A stretch of DNA of 64,000 nucleotides, from the NCBI GenBank assembly GCA_963733035.1, contig CAVTBU010000005.1, forward strand, positions 1,056,001-1,120,000, read 5' to 3'. A model generated the notes under the pieces. It worked only from the letters and a program-made list of their open reading frames with translations. It had not been told where the DNA came from and did not search any database. Of this stretch, positions 29,695 to 35,771 are shown piece after piece (position 1 is the first letter of the stretch; the number at the start of each line of letters is the position of its first letter). This DNA is from Pirellulales bacterium. Lineage in GTDB: Bacteria > Planctomycetota > Planctomycetia > Pirellulales > PALSA-1355. The translations under genes were made by a program, and so were the position numbers.

Positions 29695-30396
29695 ATGTCC
29701 AAGCTATTCATCGGTGCGTACTGGAAAAGCCGCAGGGCCTCTGTCGGCTCTTGTGCGGACCGACTAGAGAAGTGGCTGCGTACAATCGACGAGATTGCCG
29801 GCCAGACCGTACTCTGGCGTTACGCCGTGCGCAGAAAGCCGCGACTTGAGGAGCTTATTTGCGGACCTGAACGGGAAAAATGCTTGCGGGAACTATTACT
29901 GCTCCGTCGCAATCGCACGGACGTTGGGAACCGGGTGATCCCGTCTCTGGGTTTTTCCGTGTCCTTTTTGAGTGGTGGCGACAGCCACTCGACGTCGGAA
30001 CTCCACATCCACTGCGGTGCATACAGTCGATATATAGGTAACTGCCTTACTTGGGACCGACCAGAGGAAGTTATCGGCGCCGCCGATGTTCAACCGTACC
30101 TGGAGGTGCTGACGGAGCTGGCCGAGCTATGGGAACCGGATTGGGCGGGAGTAATGTCGCGAGAAGCAATGCGCACTCGAGATTACGATGTGAAACCATT
30201 TGTGGATTGGATGTTCTACGTCTGCGACGATTGGTGGTCGCAGCCCCCAGTCGTCGATCCTCCGGCCGTCGTGCGTCGACTGTCGGGCGGGAATCTGATT
30301 GTCGTGCAAGATGCAATCCCAGATCCCCACGATCCCAAACATCTGGCGCAGATACAACGTGTTCAGCAATCGATCAACCCTGCGCTCGATCGGTAG
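29695..30396 (+). CDS. Imm52-like immunity protein
   Basis: Starts 4 bp after the toxin stop; IGAYW..R, LGFS, HCG, WEPDWAGV, VDWMFY; Imm52 is the usual Tox-REase-5 partner. Confidence 0.8.
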   Translation: MSKLFIGAYWKSRRASVGSCADRLEKWLRTIDEIAGQTVLWRYAVRRKPRLEELICGPEREKCLRELLLLRRNRTDVGNRVIPSLGFSVSFLSGGDSHSTSELHIHCGAYSRYIGNCLTWDRPEEVIGAADVQPYLEVLTELAELWEPDWAGVMSREAMRTRDYDVKPFVDWMFYVCDDWWSQPPVVDPPAVVRRLSGGNLIVVQDAIPDPHDPKHLAQIQRVQQSINPALDR

Positions 30397-30574: not shown

Positions 30575-31722
30575 TCAAAAGTCATTTTCCTTTAGCCGAT
30601 ATTGCCAGGGGGTCGCCACTCGCTGCGAGGCCCCGCTCGGCGCGCTCGCCGTAACGGGATCTCCGGCGGCCGTGATGTCGACGACCACGTCCGCCCCGTT
30701 GGGCGTCATCAATTGCGTGTAGACCCGGTAGTCGATGTCGTCGGCCAGAAACCTGGCGTTCCCGCCGCAGAACATGGCATTCACTCCGCCGGGATGATGC
30801 GAGGAGGGCCGAGCGGCCGTCAGTCCGCCGAAGTGCGATTGGTTGCGATATCGAATCGGTACCGGAGCGACCTGGTCCTTCTGGCCGTTGATCGGAATCG
30901 ATTGCGCACCATAGACGTTCTGACGCAAGACGTCGACGGTGGGTGGATAGGCATTGTCGGCCTTGCCGGTGAGAAACCAAACGAACGACGTGTTCTGTCG
31001 CATTTGAAATTCGCTTTCGTACGGACGGTTCTCGTCATTCGGATTGGTGGCCCACGTCGTGGCCTGCAAGTTTTCACTGAGTAACAGCGTGTAGGTATTG
31101 CCGTCATGCTGCGAGAGAAAGTCGAGGGTTACACTGGGCGCCTGGTCGGGATGAAAATTAACAACCCGTGGATCTGGATTCGGCCGCGCGGAGGTTTGGG
31201 CGTAATCGGCTCGCGCACGATTGAAAAACAGGCCGGCGTTGACATCCTCGACCCAGCCAGGGGGAGACGGAATCGGCGGCAAAAAGTCATTCGCCGTGCG
31301 AGCCGAACCGCTGTTAACGACGTACGACAGTTCGTCGGCGCGGCGACCGCGCCGGGATCATTCGGACAAACCAATTGACTGAGGCCCGCCACGAGGTCGG
31401 GGCGTTTGCCGTCAATCGGCGCGATCGATTCGTTGGACCAATTTCGGTACAGGTCATTCCGCTCGAGTTGCGGCAGGATCGGCACCACCCAGCTTGCTCG
31501 CTTTCCGCCGACTACGTTGGCGTAGCCTGGGAACTGCCGGTGCGTTTCGGCGTATTGCATGAGTCCGAGGGCACACTGACGCAAGTTGTTCGAACAGGTT
31601 GCATAGCTCCGCGACCGGCTCTGTTGCCACATCGGGAGAAACAGCGCGGCGAGCAAGAAGATCGCGAACAATGCCACCAGCACTTCCGCAAGATAGACGC
31701 GTCCGCTTCGCTGTCCGTTCAT
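30575..31722 (-). CDS. DUF1559 (prepilin-like) protein (frameshift near 31336)
   Basis: YLAEVLVALFAI, CSNNLRQ, SWVVPILPQLE, LVCPND, LSYVVNSG, TLLLSE, PSSHHPGGVN. Confidence 0.88.
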
Positions 31723-32233
31723 GGCCGGCCTCCTCGAATTCCGCTAAACGAGTTGCTACCACCATGCCTTTCATTTTGACCGGATTCGCTCGGGAGCGCG
31801 GCGATTATCCTCGCCGCAGCGCCCGGCAATTATAACGGCTCGTAACTAGCCAATGCGAATCGCGCGGGCCGTGACTGATTGTTCGCCGGCGACTTTGTAA
31901 CCGTTCAACCGGACGGCCGCAATTTTCGCCTGCCCATAAGCCATTTTCAAACTACGCAGCCCGTTCGCTGGCGGAGTTCGGGTGGGCCAAAAACCAGACG
32001 TCGGGGAGCAACTCAGCCAGCCCATCGGGCGGAGTTGTGGGGAGCAGCCGAAGAACGTCGGCCAGGTAACGGAACGGGTCAATTCCATCCCAAGGGGACG
32101 CAGACATTTTCGATCACCGGCGGGCGGCGGTTGACGGTACGATGCGCGGCATGCCTCGCGCGGCTCGCACGCTTCTGGGCGGATAGGTTTATCGTATCCG
32201 CAATCGGGCCAGCGACCGACCTCCGGTCGGCGC

Positions 32234-32273
32234 AAAAAACAGCGGCCCGGTCCAACTTGGGACCGGGCCGCTG
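32234..32273 (-). terminator. Rho-independent terminator of the YTV-repeat gene
   Basis: 14-bp stem CAGCGGCCCGGTCC / GGACCGGGCCGCTG followed by T6 on the minus strand. Confidence 0.85.
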
Positions 32274-32333
32274 GTGTTGACCAGACCTTCCTGCTGAGTA
32301 CGACTCAGAAGAAGACTACACGCTTACTTTCCT

Positions 32334-34655
32334 TTAGCCGCCACAGCCGCAGCTCGGTTCGGCCGCACAACTGGGCTCGCAAGCCACTGGGCAGCAGACC
32401 GTTACCGGAACTTGCTTGCAGACCACTTTCGGCACGCAGCGAGTGACCGTGTAAGCAACCTTCTTGGGCACACAACGAGTGACGTTGACCGTCTTCGTGT
32501 AGTGCACTGGCTTGCATACCGTGTAGGGCACTTGCTTGCAGCACTTCTCAGCGACCATGTGGCAGACCTTGTAGGTGCAAGTCTTGACCCGCTTCTCGGG
32601 CACCATGTGGCACACCGTGTAGTTGCAGGTCTTGACCCGCTTCTCGGCGACCATGTGGCACACCTTGTACTGGCAGGTCTTGACCCGCTTCTCGGGCACC
32701 ATGTGGCACACCTTGTAGGTGCAAGTCTTGACGCGCTTCTCGGGCACCATGTGGCACACCGTGTAGTTGCAAGTCTTGACTCGCTTCTCGGGCACCATGT
32801 GGCACACCGTGTAGTTGCAGGTCTTGACCCGCTTCTCGGGCACCATGTGGCAGACCTTGTACTGGCAGGTCTTCACGCGTTGCTCGGGAACCATGCGGCA
32901 GACCGTGTACTGGCAAGTCTTGACCCGCTTCTCGGGCACCATGTGGCAGACCGTGTAGTTGCAAGTCTTGACCCGCTTCTCGGGCACCATGTGGCACACC
33001 TTGTACTGGCAGGTCTTGACGCGCTTCTCGGGCACCATGTGGCACACCGTGTAGTTGCAAGTCTTGACTCGCTTCTCGGGCACCATGTGGCACACCGTGT
33101 AGTTGCAGGTCTTGACCCGCTTCTCGGCGACCATGTGGCAGACCGTGTAGTTGCAGGTCTTGACCCGCTTCTCGGCGACCATGTGGCACACCTTATAGCA
33201 GCAGGTCTTGACGCGCTTCTCGGGCACCATGTGGCAGACCGTATAGTTGCAGGTCTTGACGCGCTTCTCGGGCACCATGCGGCACACCGTGTAGGGCACC
33301 TTCTTGACCTGAGTTTCACGAACGTACTTCACGCAGTTGATGGTCTTGGTGCGAGTTTCGGGAACCCAAACCCGCTTGCAAACCTTGACCGGCGGGCACT
33401 GGACGCATTCCGTCTTGCAGCAGCCGGGCTTGTAGACGCAGCAGCAGCGGCAAGGATCATAGCACCAGGTGCCACAGCCTTGCACGACACGCTTGACCAC
33501 GGGACCCGGGCACTCGGTGACCTGGGTTTCCCAGCGACCACAGCACACTTGCACGCACTTCGTATAGTGAACCGGCTTGCAGACCGTGCAGCACACTTCG
33601 CGCTCGCGAGTCTCTTGAACTGGCTTGCAAACGGTGTAGCAGATCTCGCGGGTCTTGGTTTCATAGACCGGCTTGCACACGGTGTAGCAGATCTCGCGGG
33701 TCTTGGTTTCCCAGACCGGCTTGCACACGGTGTAGCAGATCTCACGAGTCTTCGTCTCGTAGACCGGCTTGCAGACCGTGTAGCAAATTTCCCGGGTCTT
33801 CGTCTCGTAGACCGGCTTGCAGACCGTGTAGCAGATCTCACGAGTCTTCGTCTCGTAGACCGGCTTGCAAACGGTGTAGCAGATCTCGCGGGTCTTGGTT
33901 TCCCAGACCGGCTTGCAGACCGTGTAGCAGATCTCGCGAGTCTTCGTCTCGTAGACCGGCTTGCACACGGTGTAGCAGATCTCGCGGGTCTTGGTCTCAT
34001 AGACCGGCTTGCAGACCGTGTAGCAAATGTTGCGGGTCTTGGTTTCCCAGACCGGCTTGCACACGGTGTAGCAGATCTCGCGAGTCTTCGTCTCGTACAC
34101 TGGCTTGCAGACCGTGTAGCAGATCTCGCGGGTCTTGGTTTCATAGACCGGCTTGCAAACCGTGTAGCAGATCTCGCGGGTCTTGGTTTCCCAGACCGGT
34201 TTGCACACGGTGTAGCAGATCTCGCGAGTCTTGGTTTCCCAGACCGGCTTGCACACGGTGTAGCAGGTCTCGCGAGTCTTCGTCTCGTAGACCGGCTTGC
34301 AGACCGTGTAGCAAATTTCCCGGGTCTTGGTTTCCCAAACCGGCTTGCAGACCGTGTACTCGCAATTGCGGTAGGCGGTCTCGTTCACGTATTTGACGCA
34401 ATTGACCGTCTTCTGTTCGCAGACCGGCTCGTAGACCGTCTTGTAGCAGGTGTAATCCTGCTTTTCGTAGACGACCTGTTTGCAGGTCCGCATGACTGTG
34501 TGGCACTGCTGCTTGCATGCGGTATATGCGCATGGCTCGCAGCAGGTGGCACAGCATCGGTACCGGGCCGCGCCGCAGTACCCCGCTTGAGCCGCGTCTG
34601 CAAACGCGACTAGCAGGATGACCGCAACAATCGGCACACCCAACAATGCTCTCAT
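32334..34655 (-). CDS. Secreted Cys-rich YTV-repeat protein (planctomycete envelope protein type)
   Basis: AAGGAGG SD; signal peptide ending AQA; 16 x YTVCKPV(W/Y)ETKTREIC and 16 x Y(T/K)VCHMVPEKRVKTC(N/Q/T). Confidence 0.9.
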   Translation of the reverse strand: MRALLGVPIVAVILLVAFADAAQAGYCGAARYRCCATCCEPCAYTACKQQCHTVMRTCKQVVYEKQDYTCYKTVYEPVCEQKTVNCVKYVNETAYRNCEYTVCKPVWETKTREICYTVCKPVYETKTRETCYTVCKPVWETKTREICYTVCKPVWETKTREICYTVCKPVYETKTREICYTVCKPVYETKTREICYTVCKPVWETKTRNICYTVCKPVYETKTREICYTVCKPVYETKTREICYTVCKPVWETKTREICYTVCKPVYETKTREICYTVCKPVYETKTREICYTVCKPVYETKTREICYTVCKPVWETKTREICYTVCKPVYETKTREICYTVCKPVQETREREVCCTVCKPVHYTKCVQVCCGRWETQVTECPGPVVKRVVQGCGTWCYDPCRCCCVYKPGCCKTECVQCPPVKVCKRVWVPETRTKTINCVKYVRETQVKKVPYTVCRMVPEKRVKTCNYTVCHMVPEKRVKTCCYKVCHMVAEKRVKTCNYTVCHMVAEKRVKTCNYTVCHMVPEKRVKTCNYTVCHMVPEKRVKTCQYKVCHMVPEKRVKTCNYTVCHMVPEKRVKTCQYTVCRMVPEQRVKTCQYKVCHMVPEKRVKTCNYTVCHMVPEKRVKTCNYTVCHMVPEKRVKTCTYKVCHMVPEKRVKTCQYKVCHMVAEKRVKTCNYTVCHMVPEKRVKTCTYKVCHMVAEKCCKQVPYTVCKPVHYTKTVNVTRCVPKKVAYTVTRCVPKVVCKQVPVTVCCPVACEPSCAAEPSCGCGG
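32526..33293 (-). repeat. 48-bp tandem repeat array, C-terminal arm (16 units)
   Basis: First and last Tyr codons at 33293 and 32573 (15 x 48 apart). Confidence 0.95.
33591..34358 (-). repeat. 48-bp tandem repeat array, N-terminal arm (16 units)
   Basis: First and last Tyr codons at 34358 and 33638 (15 x 48 apart). Confidence 0.95.
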
Positions 34656-35087
34656 GGCTTTCGTGCCTCCTTCGTGGGACGACTCAGGATGGGTCTGGTC
34701 AGGCGAGGTTTTCCCGCTATTAGCTCTATTCGGCCAGCGCACTCCATGTGCGTTAGCTGGGTAACCCAAACTTCACCATCTACCGCATTCCACGGGATGA
34801 GTAGAGTTGGCGCATTTGTTTACCCACCTTCCCCGAACGCTTCATTGGCATCGTCAATCTAGGAAGACAGCTTGACCTAGATATGCTGCGAAGCCTTTTC
34901 ATTCCCGGTAGTTGGGTAAGGCTCACCGGATTGTGCGTTCAAAAGGGGTGCTAGCGGACGTGTCGGTTTCGCTAGCGGTGTCCCACCCGCCCGATTGCGC
35001 CGGGAGTCTTGCCCGAGGGGCGGCCGTGACCTAAAGTACAATCCCCCCTTGGCGGCGCAACGGATCGTCCTTTGGCACACGTCTAGC

Positions 35088-35771
35088 ATGAGCGACCGCA
35101 AACCCAGACCACCGGCCGCCCCGGCGGCCGACTCGCCGGTGCCGAAGGCCGTCGTTAGCCGATTGAGTCTGTACCTGCGCGAGCTCCAGCATCTAGTGCG
35201 CGACGGCCACCAGCGGACCAGCAGCAGCCAACTTGGTCGTCTGTTAGGGTTTAGCGACGCCCAGGTACGCAAGGACTTGGCCTATTTTGGGCACTTCGGC
35301 CACCCCGGAATTGGCTACCGTTGTGACGACCTGATCAAAGCCATCCGCAAGATCCTGGGAACCGATCGCGACTGGCCGGTTGCGATGATCGGTACCGGCA
35401 ACCTGGGACGTGCGCTGTTGGGCTACAAGGGCTTTAGCCACCAGGGCTTTCGCATCGCGGCCGCGTTCGACGTCGACCCCCAGCGCGTGGGCGCCACGAT
35501 CGAAGGGGTGCGCGTGTTTCACCTCGACCAGCTCGCCGAAGTCGTCGCGGACCACAAAATCAAGCTCGGCATGATTGCCGTTCCGGCTACCGCGGCCCAG
35601 AACGTGGCCGATCGCCTGGTGGCCGCCGGCATCGAGGGGATCGTGAACTTCGCGCCGGTGACGATCAGCTTGCCGGAAAACGTGCGCCAGGTGGGGGTCG
35701 ACCTGGCCATCGAGCTCGAACAGCTTTCGTTCGCCGTGGTCAGCCGCGGCGCCAGCGACACCGCGGACTAA
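35088..35771 (+). CDS. rex: Redox-sensing transcriptional repressor Rex
   Basis: RLSLYLREL, QVRKDLAYFG.FG..GIGY, IGTGNLGRALL, GIVNFAP. Confidence 0.94.
   Translation: MSDRKPRPPAAPAADSPVPKAVVSRLSLYLRELQHLVRDGHQRTSSSQLGRLLGFSDAQVRKDLAYFGHFGHPGIGYRCDDLIKAIRKILGTDRDWPVAMIGTGNLGRALLGYKGFSHQGFRIAAAFDVDPQRVGATIEGVRVFHLDQLAEVVADHKIKLGMIAVPATAAQNVADRLVAAGIEGIVNFAPVTISLPENVRQVGVDLAIELEQLSFAVVSRGASDTAD

Follow-up and report, generated by a model that had tools for sequence, protein, structure and literature searches.

The gene at 32334..34655 on the minus strand of the window (the whole 64,000-nucleotide stretch of DNA analysed) very probably encodes a secreted, cysteine-rich YTV wall protein whose whole mature chain is one fold-back, two-stranded antiparallel β-ribbon. 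Sequence statistics place unit i of the N arm against unit n+1-i of the C arm and pair residue r with residue 881-r, with the turn at the conserved YDPC/RC (the slash marks the axis). A fold-back of this kind is the most likely cause of the mirror-image patterns seen in the two 16-repeat halves of the protein.

The gene was delimited from the open reading frame list, the Pfam match and the composition. It encodes 773 residues from an ATG at 34655, and the reading frame is open beyond this codon as far as 34769; residues are numbered here in the resulting 812-codon frame (32334-34769, minus strand). The match to Pfam PF07639 covers 22 stretches with E 1.5e-229 and 742.4 bits, far above the curated cut-off of 21, and on this profile the protein is assigned to the YTV cell-wall family. 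No other family scored above its curated cut-off in the Pfam scan, and the neighbours in the ESM Atlas are all YTV clusters. Cysteine makes up 107 of the 773 residues (13.8%). A probable signal peptide, MRALLGVPIVAVILLVAFADAAQA, occupies 34584..34655 (minus strand); read by eye from the translation, the N-terminus is hydrophobic, ends in AQA followed by G, with cleavage predicted after AQA, and is conserved among orthologs. The protein is therefore a putatively exported as well as a cysteine-rich one. The PF07639 profile has matches in all 33 genomes of the family that were searched and in none of 14 control genomes. The records of 78 related loci are titled Planctomycetota, Pirellulales or Thermoguttaceae, with two exceptions, one titled Candidatus Zipacnadia and the other only 'bacterium', and the YTV family thus appears to be restricted to Planctomycetia. 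Several of the relatives have collapsed or frameshifted repeat arrays.

The remaining features of the protein, all on the minus strand, fall into two caps, two arms and a centre. The N cap (34359..34583; 75 residues, 13 Cys) closes with a CVKYVNET motif, and a motif of the same type also precedes the C arm. It is followed by the N arm (33591..34358), which consists of 16 units of 16 residues with the consensus YTVCKPV[W/Y/Q]ETKTREIC, position 8 reading WYWWYYWYYWYYYWYQ. The central block (33294..33590; 99 residues, 18 Cys) contains a CKPVHYTK end motif, GRWETQ, PGPV, CPP, VWVP and a second motif, CVKYVRET; the ribbon is predicted to continue through it to the hairpin tip YDPC/RCCC at 33438..33461. 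The C arm (32526..33293) again has 16 units of 16 residues, Y[T/K]VC[H/R]MV[P/A]EKRVKTC followed by a variable residue, with position 2 reading TTKTTTKTTKTTKKTK. The C cap (32337..32525; 63 residues, 10 Cys) contains a CKPVHYTKT end motif, YTVTRCVPK and a Cys-rich tail. Every 16-residue unit contains proline. At the DNA level, Tandem Repeats Finder resolved the arms as two arrays of 48-nt repeats, each of 15.4 copies, at 86-89% matches. An intrinsic-terminator-like hairpin (14 pairs, 12 of them G-C, then TTTTTT) lies at 32240..32273 on the minus strand, about 60 nt downstream of the stop codon; it is the sole such site in 32000-35100, where shuffling gives an expected mean of 2.9.

The first-pass annotation described two arms of 16 units by 16 residues in which reading the W/Y order of the first backwards gives exactly the K/T order of the second. 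Translation reproduces the limits of both arms exactly and bears out the mirror: when the order at position 2 of the C units (C2) is reversed, each K stands opposite a W at position 8 of the N units (N8), and each T opposite a residue other than W. The chance figure attached to this match, 1 in 8008, is valid for one fixed comparison, and is weakened by the look-elsewhere factor and by a period-3 tendency of both patterns; we consider the resulting doubt to be removed by replication of the mirror in related sequences. The exactness of the mirror also argues for a correct assembly, because an error in either arm would break it. Public sequencing runs were searched for reads from the array, and none contained more than 0.18 of the sampled words.

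Two sets of relatives were analysed, which probably overlap and within which kin are not independent. In ten orthologs with equal arms (16/16, 17/17 and 20/20 units), a mirrored K or Q stands opposite W in 37 of 39 cases, and 161 of 178 unit pairs are concordant in mirror order. Only offset 0 fits, the other offsets and the direct order giving at most 17/23, and none of 100000 permutations equalled the observed matching of W with K/Q. Across 31 genome loci, W faces K, Q or R (that is, non-T) in 265 of 267 cases and T in 2, while residues other than W face T in 166 cases and non-T in 41. This amounts to mirror agreement at 431 of 474 positions, against 311 in direct order and 312.3 in shuffles (sd 7.6, maximum 343). 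The mirror is exact in 14 of the 30 polymorphic loci, and the orders differ between loci. Many orthologs are nearly all W:K in composition, and in one, L014, no more than 11 of the 16 units match (counted from the printed strings). The per-unit code, W:K or Y:T, follows mirror order beyond chance.

Mirroring is not confined to this one pair of positions. In one genus a second mirrored code pairs N11 with C3/C5. In two fully read loci with Thermoguttaceae titles (L085 and L048), WETKSKEVC units face WKECH units exclusively. The orders of 14- and 16-residue units are mirrored between the arms as well.

Lengths of the two arms were measured between landmarks (N cap, centre and C cap) found by local alignment; strict regular expressions found the centre in 16 of 120 homologs and all landmarks in 3 proteins. 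Of the 71 loci parsed, 46 have N and C arms with exactly the same number of residues; the equal arms come in 23 distinct lengths, which range from 128 to 496 residues and include non-multiples of 16. Among assemblies judged from their contig names to be of long-read style, and with good landmarks, the arms are equal in 25 of 25, whereas the unequal arms (11 of 56 well-anchored loci) all come from contigs with short-read-style or otherwise non-long-read names. One ortholog of the same genus has 14/17 units. Metagenome homologs have equal arms in 15 of 23 cases, and two of the other eight are equal on inspection; P0001 (138/16) and P0003 (74/104) are unequal. Apparent inequality in P0018, P0027 and L104 was discarded as a landmark artefact, since the units counted by eye are equal or consistent with equal. 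In the 17/17 orthologs, the unit-by-unit DNA alignment leaves the position of the extra unit pair ambiguous, the units being about 90% alike. These data support matched gain and loss of repeats in the two arms, as the first-pass annotation had proposed from this protein, and the comparison of homologs with different repeat counts that it suggested gave equal arms and mirrored patterns in the 16/16, 17/17 and 20/20 orthologs. In a ribbon where every residue needs a partner, whole units and two-residue deletions would persist only if gained or lost in both arms, and the arms would thus stay equal to the residue. The mirror rule is also a practical test of correct assembly for such repeat arrays.

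Covariation gives a register for the pairing. In the central block, the strongest signal from 67 non-redundant orthologs falls at r+s=881 (0.067), flanked by side peaks at 879 and 883, and at the level of units the signal is centred on a position sum of 12, broadly, over sums 10 to 14. The symmetry axis, which had been placed at the WCYDPCRC segment, is thereby located between C440 and R441, at about 33450/33449 in the window. Register 881 sets residue 70 opposite residue 811. It also sets N8 (W or Y) opposite the Cys at position 4 of the C unit, with C2 (K/Q/R or T) as the diagonal, same-face neighbour of N8. Each rung has four Cys and there are no Cys-Cys facings, for which reason a disulfide ladder between the arms, though considered, is not proposed.

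AlphaFold2 was run on a paralog from the same genome, with an alignment of 61 sequences. The model is a giant two-stranded hairpin (strands 28-179 and 220-371, pLDDT 80-90 in the arms, pTM 0.23); DSSP finds continuous strands and an all-β structure, and the centre, homologous to the central block, is modelled as short paired strands. Covariation for this paralog was counted in 75 sequences, largely the same as those behind the model, and is thus not an independent line of evidence. Its maximum lies at r+s=399 (0.116), flanked by peaks at 397 and 401, where the background stays below 0.01, and the signal runs on into a DPxTG turn. This turn (D197 P198 L199 / T200) has the same geometry as the YDPC/RC tip. 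A third class, that of P0020, gives 419 and 417 from 20 sequences only. The single antiparallel hairpin, with some 370 residues in each strand, that the first-pass annotation had proposed is thus supported by the 881 pairing and by both the model and the covariation of the paralog.

In the proposed mechanism, the diagonal contact between N8 and C2 on one face would make Trp at N8 demand a neighbour whose side chain is long and either cationic or an amide (K, Q or R), and Tyr would be accompanied by Thr. The W:K contact would be of the cation-π type. The mirror-image W/Y and K/T orders would then be the footprint of a cross-strand contact made unit by unit between near-identical repeats, within a single chain. 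At 0.33 nm per residue, the arms alone would give a rod of about 85 nm and the entire ribbon one of about 120 nm, a length on the order of 100 nm. The four Cys per rung may cross-link such rods into an SDS-resistant protein wall. No solved structure offers a precedent for a two-stranded ribbon that is exposed on both faces, and higher-order packing of the ribbons is therefore likely.

It had also been suggested that the aperiodic W/K order fixes the register, so that near-identical repeats cannot slip. This was not supported, as the observed orders resist slipping less than shuffled ones. The summed penalty of the weakest slip is 78, against 92.1 (sd 5.0) in shuffles, only 0.4% of which are as low, and self-similarity is higher in the observed orders than in shuffles. 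In the protein studied here, a slip of three units costs 3 clashes and one of one or two units costs 9. Given this low penalty and the nearly all-W:K composition of many orthologs, contact between the strands accounts for the mirror better than an anti-slip register lock does.

The mirror, the equal arms and the antidiagonal covariation would be explained equally well if the N arm paired antiparallel with the C arm of another molecule, in a domain-swapped dimer or an open-ended wall polymer. A polymer would suit a wall function, and a protein like P0001, whose arms differ in length, could still join such a lattice. Against this, the covariation stays on the same antidiagonal, unbroken, into a tight and conserved DP turn, the AlphaFold2 chain of the paralog closes on itself, and an intramolecular partner would be present at far higher local concentration; we therefore regard pairing between chains as unlikely. 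A still smaller probability, of a few chances in a hundred in our judgement, attaches to arms that adjoin antiparallel while folding separately, for example as two stacks or solenoids of 16-residue rungs in place of a flat two-stranded ladder. The breadth of the unit-level signal would allow this, and a ribbon without a hydrophobic core is unusual. However, a single antidiagonal with side peaks at ±2 is the signature of an antiparallel ladder and recurs in three subfamilies, two-residue deletions are mirrored, DSSP makes the strands of the paralog model continuous, and Pro N6 and Pro C8 would fall in same-class pairs for any even register.

Explanations without any pairing fare worse. The period-3 tendency of both patterns, the fact that slips of three to four units keep about half of the W matches, and the frequent misassembly of repeat arrays, seen in those relatives that are collapsed or frameshifted, might suggest that the mirror is due to chance, to higher-order repeats of period 3 or to an assembly artefact. 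The permutations and shuffles described above argue strongly to the contrary, as do the fit at offset 0 alone and the exact mirrors in loci whose orders differ, and a mirror between arrays 1 kb apart is beyond the power of an assembler; the probability of such an origin is negligible. We give hardly any credence either to a process at the DNA level, whether a duplication in inverted orientation or gene conversion acting on inverted arms. The two arms do share inverted matches of 16-28 nt, but only in the surroundings of ACACSGTGT, the palindrome formed by the YTVC codons. The N arm matches the reverse complement of the C arm at 420 of 768 nt (shuffled mean 410, maximum 417) and the C arm read directly at 473 of 768, so the earlier statement that the arms are not inverted repeats of DNA stands. 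The arms share one frame, one direction and common start and end motifs, and hence are a direct duplication. The fold-back ribbon is retained as the preferred reading.

YTV proteins are reported from wall preparations of Rhodopirellula baltica, Gemmata obscuriglobus and Tuwongella immobilis, and the abundance of cystine-containing protein in the walls of planctomycetes has been recognised for decades. The protein described here shares with the family its profile, Cys richness, N-terminal export signal and planctomycete relatives, and nothing sets it apart. Other YTV members are described as present in the SDS-insoluble wall fraction (PMC5287468, PMC8567305) and as major components of SDS-boiled walls (PMC5287468, PMC8567305, PMC12673574), and one is described as essential in Planctopirus limnophila (PMC10632474). 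The portions of the family accounts available to us are confined to YTV motifs, Cys content and wall rigidity (PMC8567305, PMC10632474, PMC12673574, PMC5287468), and the part seen of a further source tabulates PF07639 among repeat families without a structural match (PMC8078820). A literature search found no account of a YTV mirror code, in agreement with the first-pass annotation, nor of a structural picture; Mahajan et al. 2020 (Genome Biol Evol 12:1528) may add to this. What appears to be new is the reading of the architecture of the YTV family.

Searches with the paralog model gave no structural analogue (Foldseek best E 0.89, VIA best Z 2.6), and the best hit in a sequence search of the PDB had E 0.38. 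The sole weak matches, at noise level (Z 2.6 and 2.1, E 2.2), were hairpin stems of the anthrax protective-antigen, iota and epsilon pore toxins. Each strand of these hairpins is about 50 residues long, and the hairpins occur only within a multi-chain membrane barrel; in sequence, repeats and function they are unrelated to the YTV protein. A parallel, in principle only, is with SMC and Rad50, in which a single chain folds back so that its N- and C-terminal arms pair antiparallel in a rod of tens of nanometres. The YTV arms would likewise fold back antiparallel with matched lengths, but SMC and Rad50 arms are α-helical heptad coiled coils running from an ATPase head to a hinge, whereas the YTV arms are β with a Pro in each unit, in a protein that lacks enzymatic domains and is predicted to be exported to the wall. 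Membership of the SMC/Rad50 type was ruled out on the all-β paralog model, these prolines and the Pfam match to YTV only. The arms of SMC/Rad50-type proteins are described as having been kept matched in length during evolution (PMC5344682), and the YTV ribbon would be their β-strand counterpart. The diagonal N8/C2 geometry of register 881 resembles that of the cross-strand Trp-Lys (cation-π) and Trp-zipper pairs of designed β-hairpin peptides, in which Trp is stabilised by a Lys placed diagonally across from it; those peptides have 12-16 residues, whereas the YTV protein would be a natural array of 16 such contacts.

More speculatively, YTV wall proteins may form a distinct fibrous class, in which single chains are zipped into two-stranded β-ribbon rods between about 40 and 185 nm long, with a length set digitally by how many 16-residue rungs are paired. 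The dimorphisms that occur in pairs (W:K/Q/R versus Y:T, and 14- versus 16-residue rungs) might then be selected position marks, placed every 3-4 rungs, that set sites of lateral packing or cross-linking or guide zipping, and exposed rows of Cys might link the rods to one another in the planctomycete protein sacculus. We put this forward tentatively, as a possibility with the odds somewhat against it. YTV proteins are major wall components and one of them is essential, yet the literature searched holds no structural picture of them. A residue-exact ribbon would predict the rod length per repeat, the residues that touch and the cysteines left free for cross-links, and would make the coevolution of a natural contact legible inside one protein, repeat by repeat.

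The YTV-family gene of the window is a single open frame at 32334-34769 on the minus strand. The likely start codon is an ATG at 34655, giving a product of 773 aa, which we call the window protein. Its N-terminus is hydrophobic and ends in AQA followed by G, Cys makes up 13.8% of it (107 residues), and its match to the Pfam YTV family PF07639 is very strong (E 1.5e-229, 742 bits vs a cut-off of 21). A strong terminator-like hairpin lies downstream of the stop codon. Proteins of this family have been described as Cys-rich major proteins in SDS-boiled planctomycete walls (PMC5287468, PMC8567305, PMC12673574), and in Planctopirus limnophila a YTV gene is reported to belong to the small group of essential genes specific to planctomycetes (PMC10632474). 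Just upstream and divergent from this gene for a Cys-rich wall protein is a Rex-type redox-sensing repressor (PF06971 and PF02629; 34995-35771, plus strand). On the other side are two overlapping minus-strand ORFs (30575-31722 overall; 31129-31722 and 30575-31282), which correspond to the N-terminal and the C-terminal portion of DUF1559 (PF07596) and look like one planctomycete gene split by a frameshift or sequencing error, and an Imm52-family immunity protein (PF15579, E 3.8e-22; 29695-30396, plus strand).

The window protein is an internal direct duplication whose two halves bear mirrored marks. The N arm (33591-34358, minus strand) has 16 units of the form YTVCKPV[W/Y/Q]ETKTREIC, and the C arm (32526-33293, minus strand) has 16 units of the form Y[T/K]VC[H/R]MV[P/A]EKRVKTC. 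(the dot being any residue). Duplication follows from the fact that the arms are direct homologs in DNA (473 of 768 nt shared), each preceded by a CVKYV.ET motif and closed by CKPVHYTK. The residues at position 8 of the N-arm units (N8) run WYWWYYWYYWYYYWYQ, and those at position 2 of the C-arm units (C2), read in reverse, run KTKKTTKTTKTTTKTT. The first-pass annotation had claimed that the W/Y order of the one is the reversed K/T order of the other, and the match is indeed exact; it was also right that the arms are not inverted repeats in DNA, only 420 nt being shared with the reverse complement, close to the shuffled mean of 410. An antisense frame of 733 aa (32412-34613, plus strand) spans the whole repeat region; its translation is a monotonous repeat rich in L, G, H, D and R, and it is most likely open only because the repeated codons hold no reverse-strand stop.

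A search of 33 genomes of the family gave 11 orthologs that could be parsed. An ortholog of the same genus, with 17/17 units, has an exact mirror, its extra Y unit in the N arm and extra T unit in the C arm both lying near the turn; one from another genus (17/17) has a different order and again an exact mirror, as does a further ortholog (16/16) in which W is faced by Q as well as K. In the ortholog from a one-contig genome (20/20) the sole W is in unit N4 and the sole K in unit C17. In one genus Q is commoner than W. When the orthologs are pooled, K or Q is opposite 37 of 39 W at mirror offset 0, other offsets and direct order match at most 17/23, and none of 100000 permutations reaches the observed value. 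The expectation that homologs with varied repeat counts would keep equal arms and mirrored patterns thus held for most of the set: ten of the 11 orthologs have equal arms, with mirrored patterns. The exceptions are one with 14/17 units, in a same-genus draft genome of 360 contigs, and two inexact mirrors, L014 (11/16 units agree) and L015 (3/4 W matched), as counted from the unit strings. In two error-prone assemblies (L018 and L027) the C arms have several frame-breaking indels exactly in the codon bearing the T/K/Q mark, reading TACACAGGTC where TAC-ACG/CAG-GTC is expected; these may come from mixed strains differing at this position.

A wider set of 78 related loci, 7 of them with broken or short frames, gave 71 that were parsed; it probably includes species of the family search, so that the counts are not additive, and kin are not independent. 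Arm lengths, taken as the distances between the aligned N cap, centre and C cap, agree to the residue in 46 of these 71 loci; if only the 56 in which each cap scores at least 140 are counted, they agree in 45. Where the arms are equal, 23 different lengths occur, the shortest 128 aa and the longest 496 aa, with 202, 206, 214, 220, 244, 246, 250, 264 and 434 among them. Judging the assembler from the contig name, all 25 well-anchored loci on long-read-style contigs are equal, and all 11 unequal ones are on short-read-style or otherwise non-long-read contigs. Loci with irregularly alternating units of 14 and 16 aa have an N-arm length order that is the reverse of the C-arm order, with a one-unit offset. 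In the 31 loci whose units are all of 16 aa, W has a non-T residue opposite it 265 times and T twice; for residues other than W the partner is T in 166 cases and non-T in 41. Mirror agreement is 431/474, vs 311 for direct order and 312.3 for shuffled orders (sd 7.6, max 343; 20000 shuffles), and the mirror is exact in 14 of the 30 polymorphic loci. In L085 and L048, loci from Thermoguttaceae-titled records that were read from end to end, another pair of unit types is mirrored too: N units with the ending WETKSKEVC occur only opposite C units that start with WKECH. Among well-anchored metagenome proteins, 15 of 23 have equal arms, and two of the other eight proved equal on inspection; P0001 (138/16) and P0003 (74/104) are still unequal. 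A subclass comprising P0005, P0007, P0008, P0020 and relatives has 4-8 units per arm and, beyond the hairpin, a TPR-like domain (PF14559, PF13432) at the C terminus.

A YTV paralog that is 469 aa long and poor in Cys is encoded on a different contig of the same genome (L009:1141-2550). In 61 diverse homologs its N arm nearly always has 152 residues, its centre 46 and its C arm 137. AlphaFold2, run with these homologs, predicts for the paralog two huge strands, residues 28-179 and 220-371, which are interrupted at a few points by breaks of two residues, and small paired strands in the central part (pLDDT 80-90 in the arms, pTM 0.23). Structure and sequence searches found no solved structure resembling this hairpin model, the literature searched yielded neither a fold-back architecture nor a mirrored code for YTV proteins, and a tabulation in PMC8078820 lists the family without a structural match. 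Covariation in the paralog (APC-corrected mutual information, 75 sequences) has its maximum, 0.116, where the two residue numbers sum to 399, with side peaks at 397 (0.065) and 401 (0.064); the background stays under 0.01, and no parallel diagonal exceeds 0.010. The signal runs on through the centre to a DPxTG turn.

In the clade of the window protein (67 non-redundant rows, covering the central block together with the final N unit and the first C unit) the maximum is at a residue sum of 881 in the 812-codon frame (0.067; flanks 879, 0.041, and 883, 0.028). The axis is therefore between YDPC and RC, and its spacing after the Asp is identical to that in the paralog. Within the arms, unit-level covariation in the 31 loci is centred on a position sum of 12 and is strongest for N8-C2, N11-C1 and N11-C3. 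Given this centre and register 881, N8 (W/Y) would lie opposite the Cys at C4, with C2 (K/T) as its diagonal neighbour on the same face. Conversion of ribbon lengths to nm assumes that each residue adds about 0.33 nm, the textbook figure. The pairing is derived from sequences, and either an intramolecular or a swapped arrangement would fit it.

The first-pass annotation had further proposed that the W/K order is a code that fixes the register and prevents slipping. In the window protein, slips of one or two units set most W against T and give 9 clashes, but a slip of three gives only 3, and many orthologs are nearly all W:K. For the window protein plus the 30 polymorphic loci, the weakest-slip penalties add up to 78, vs 92.1 for shuffled orders (sd 5.0), and only 0.4% of shuffles are as low. 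An anti-slip code is therefore not supported: the unit orders are more periodic than random and are not optimised against slipping, a periodicity as expected from block duplication. In register 881 no Cys is opposite another Cys, which suggests that the Cys residues serve links outside the ribbon. The marks may play a part in packing or cross-linking; the mirror itself we read as a consequence of cross-strand contact.
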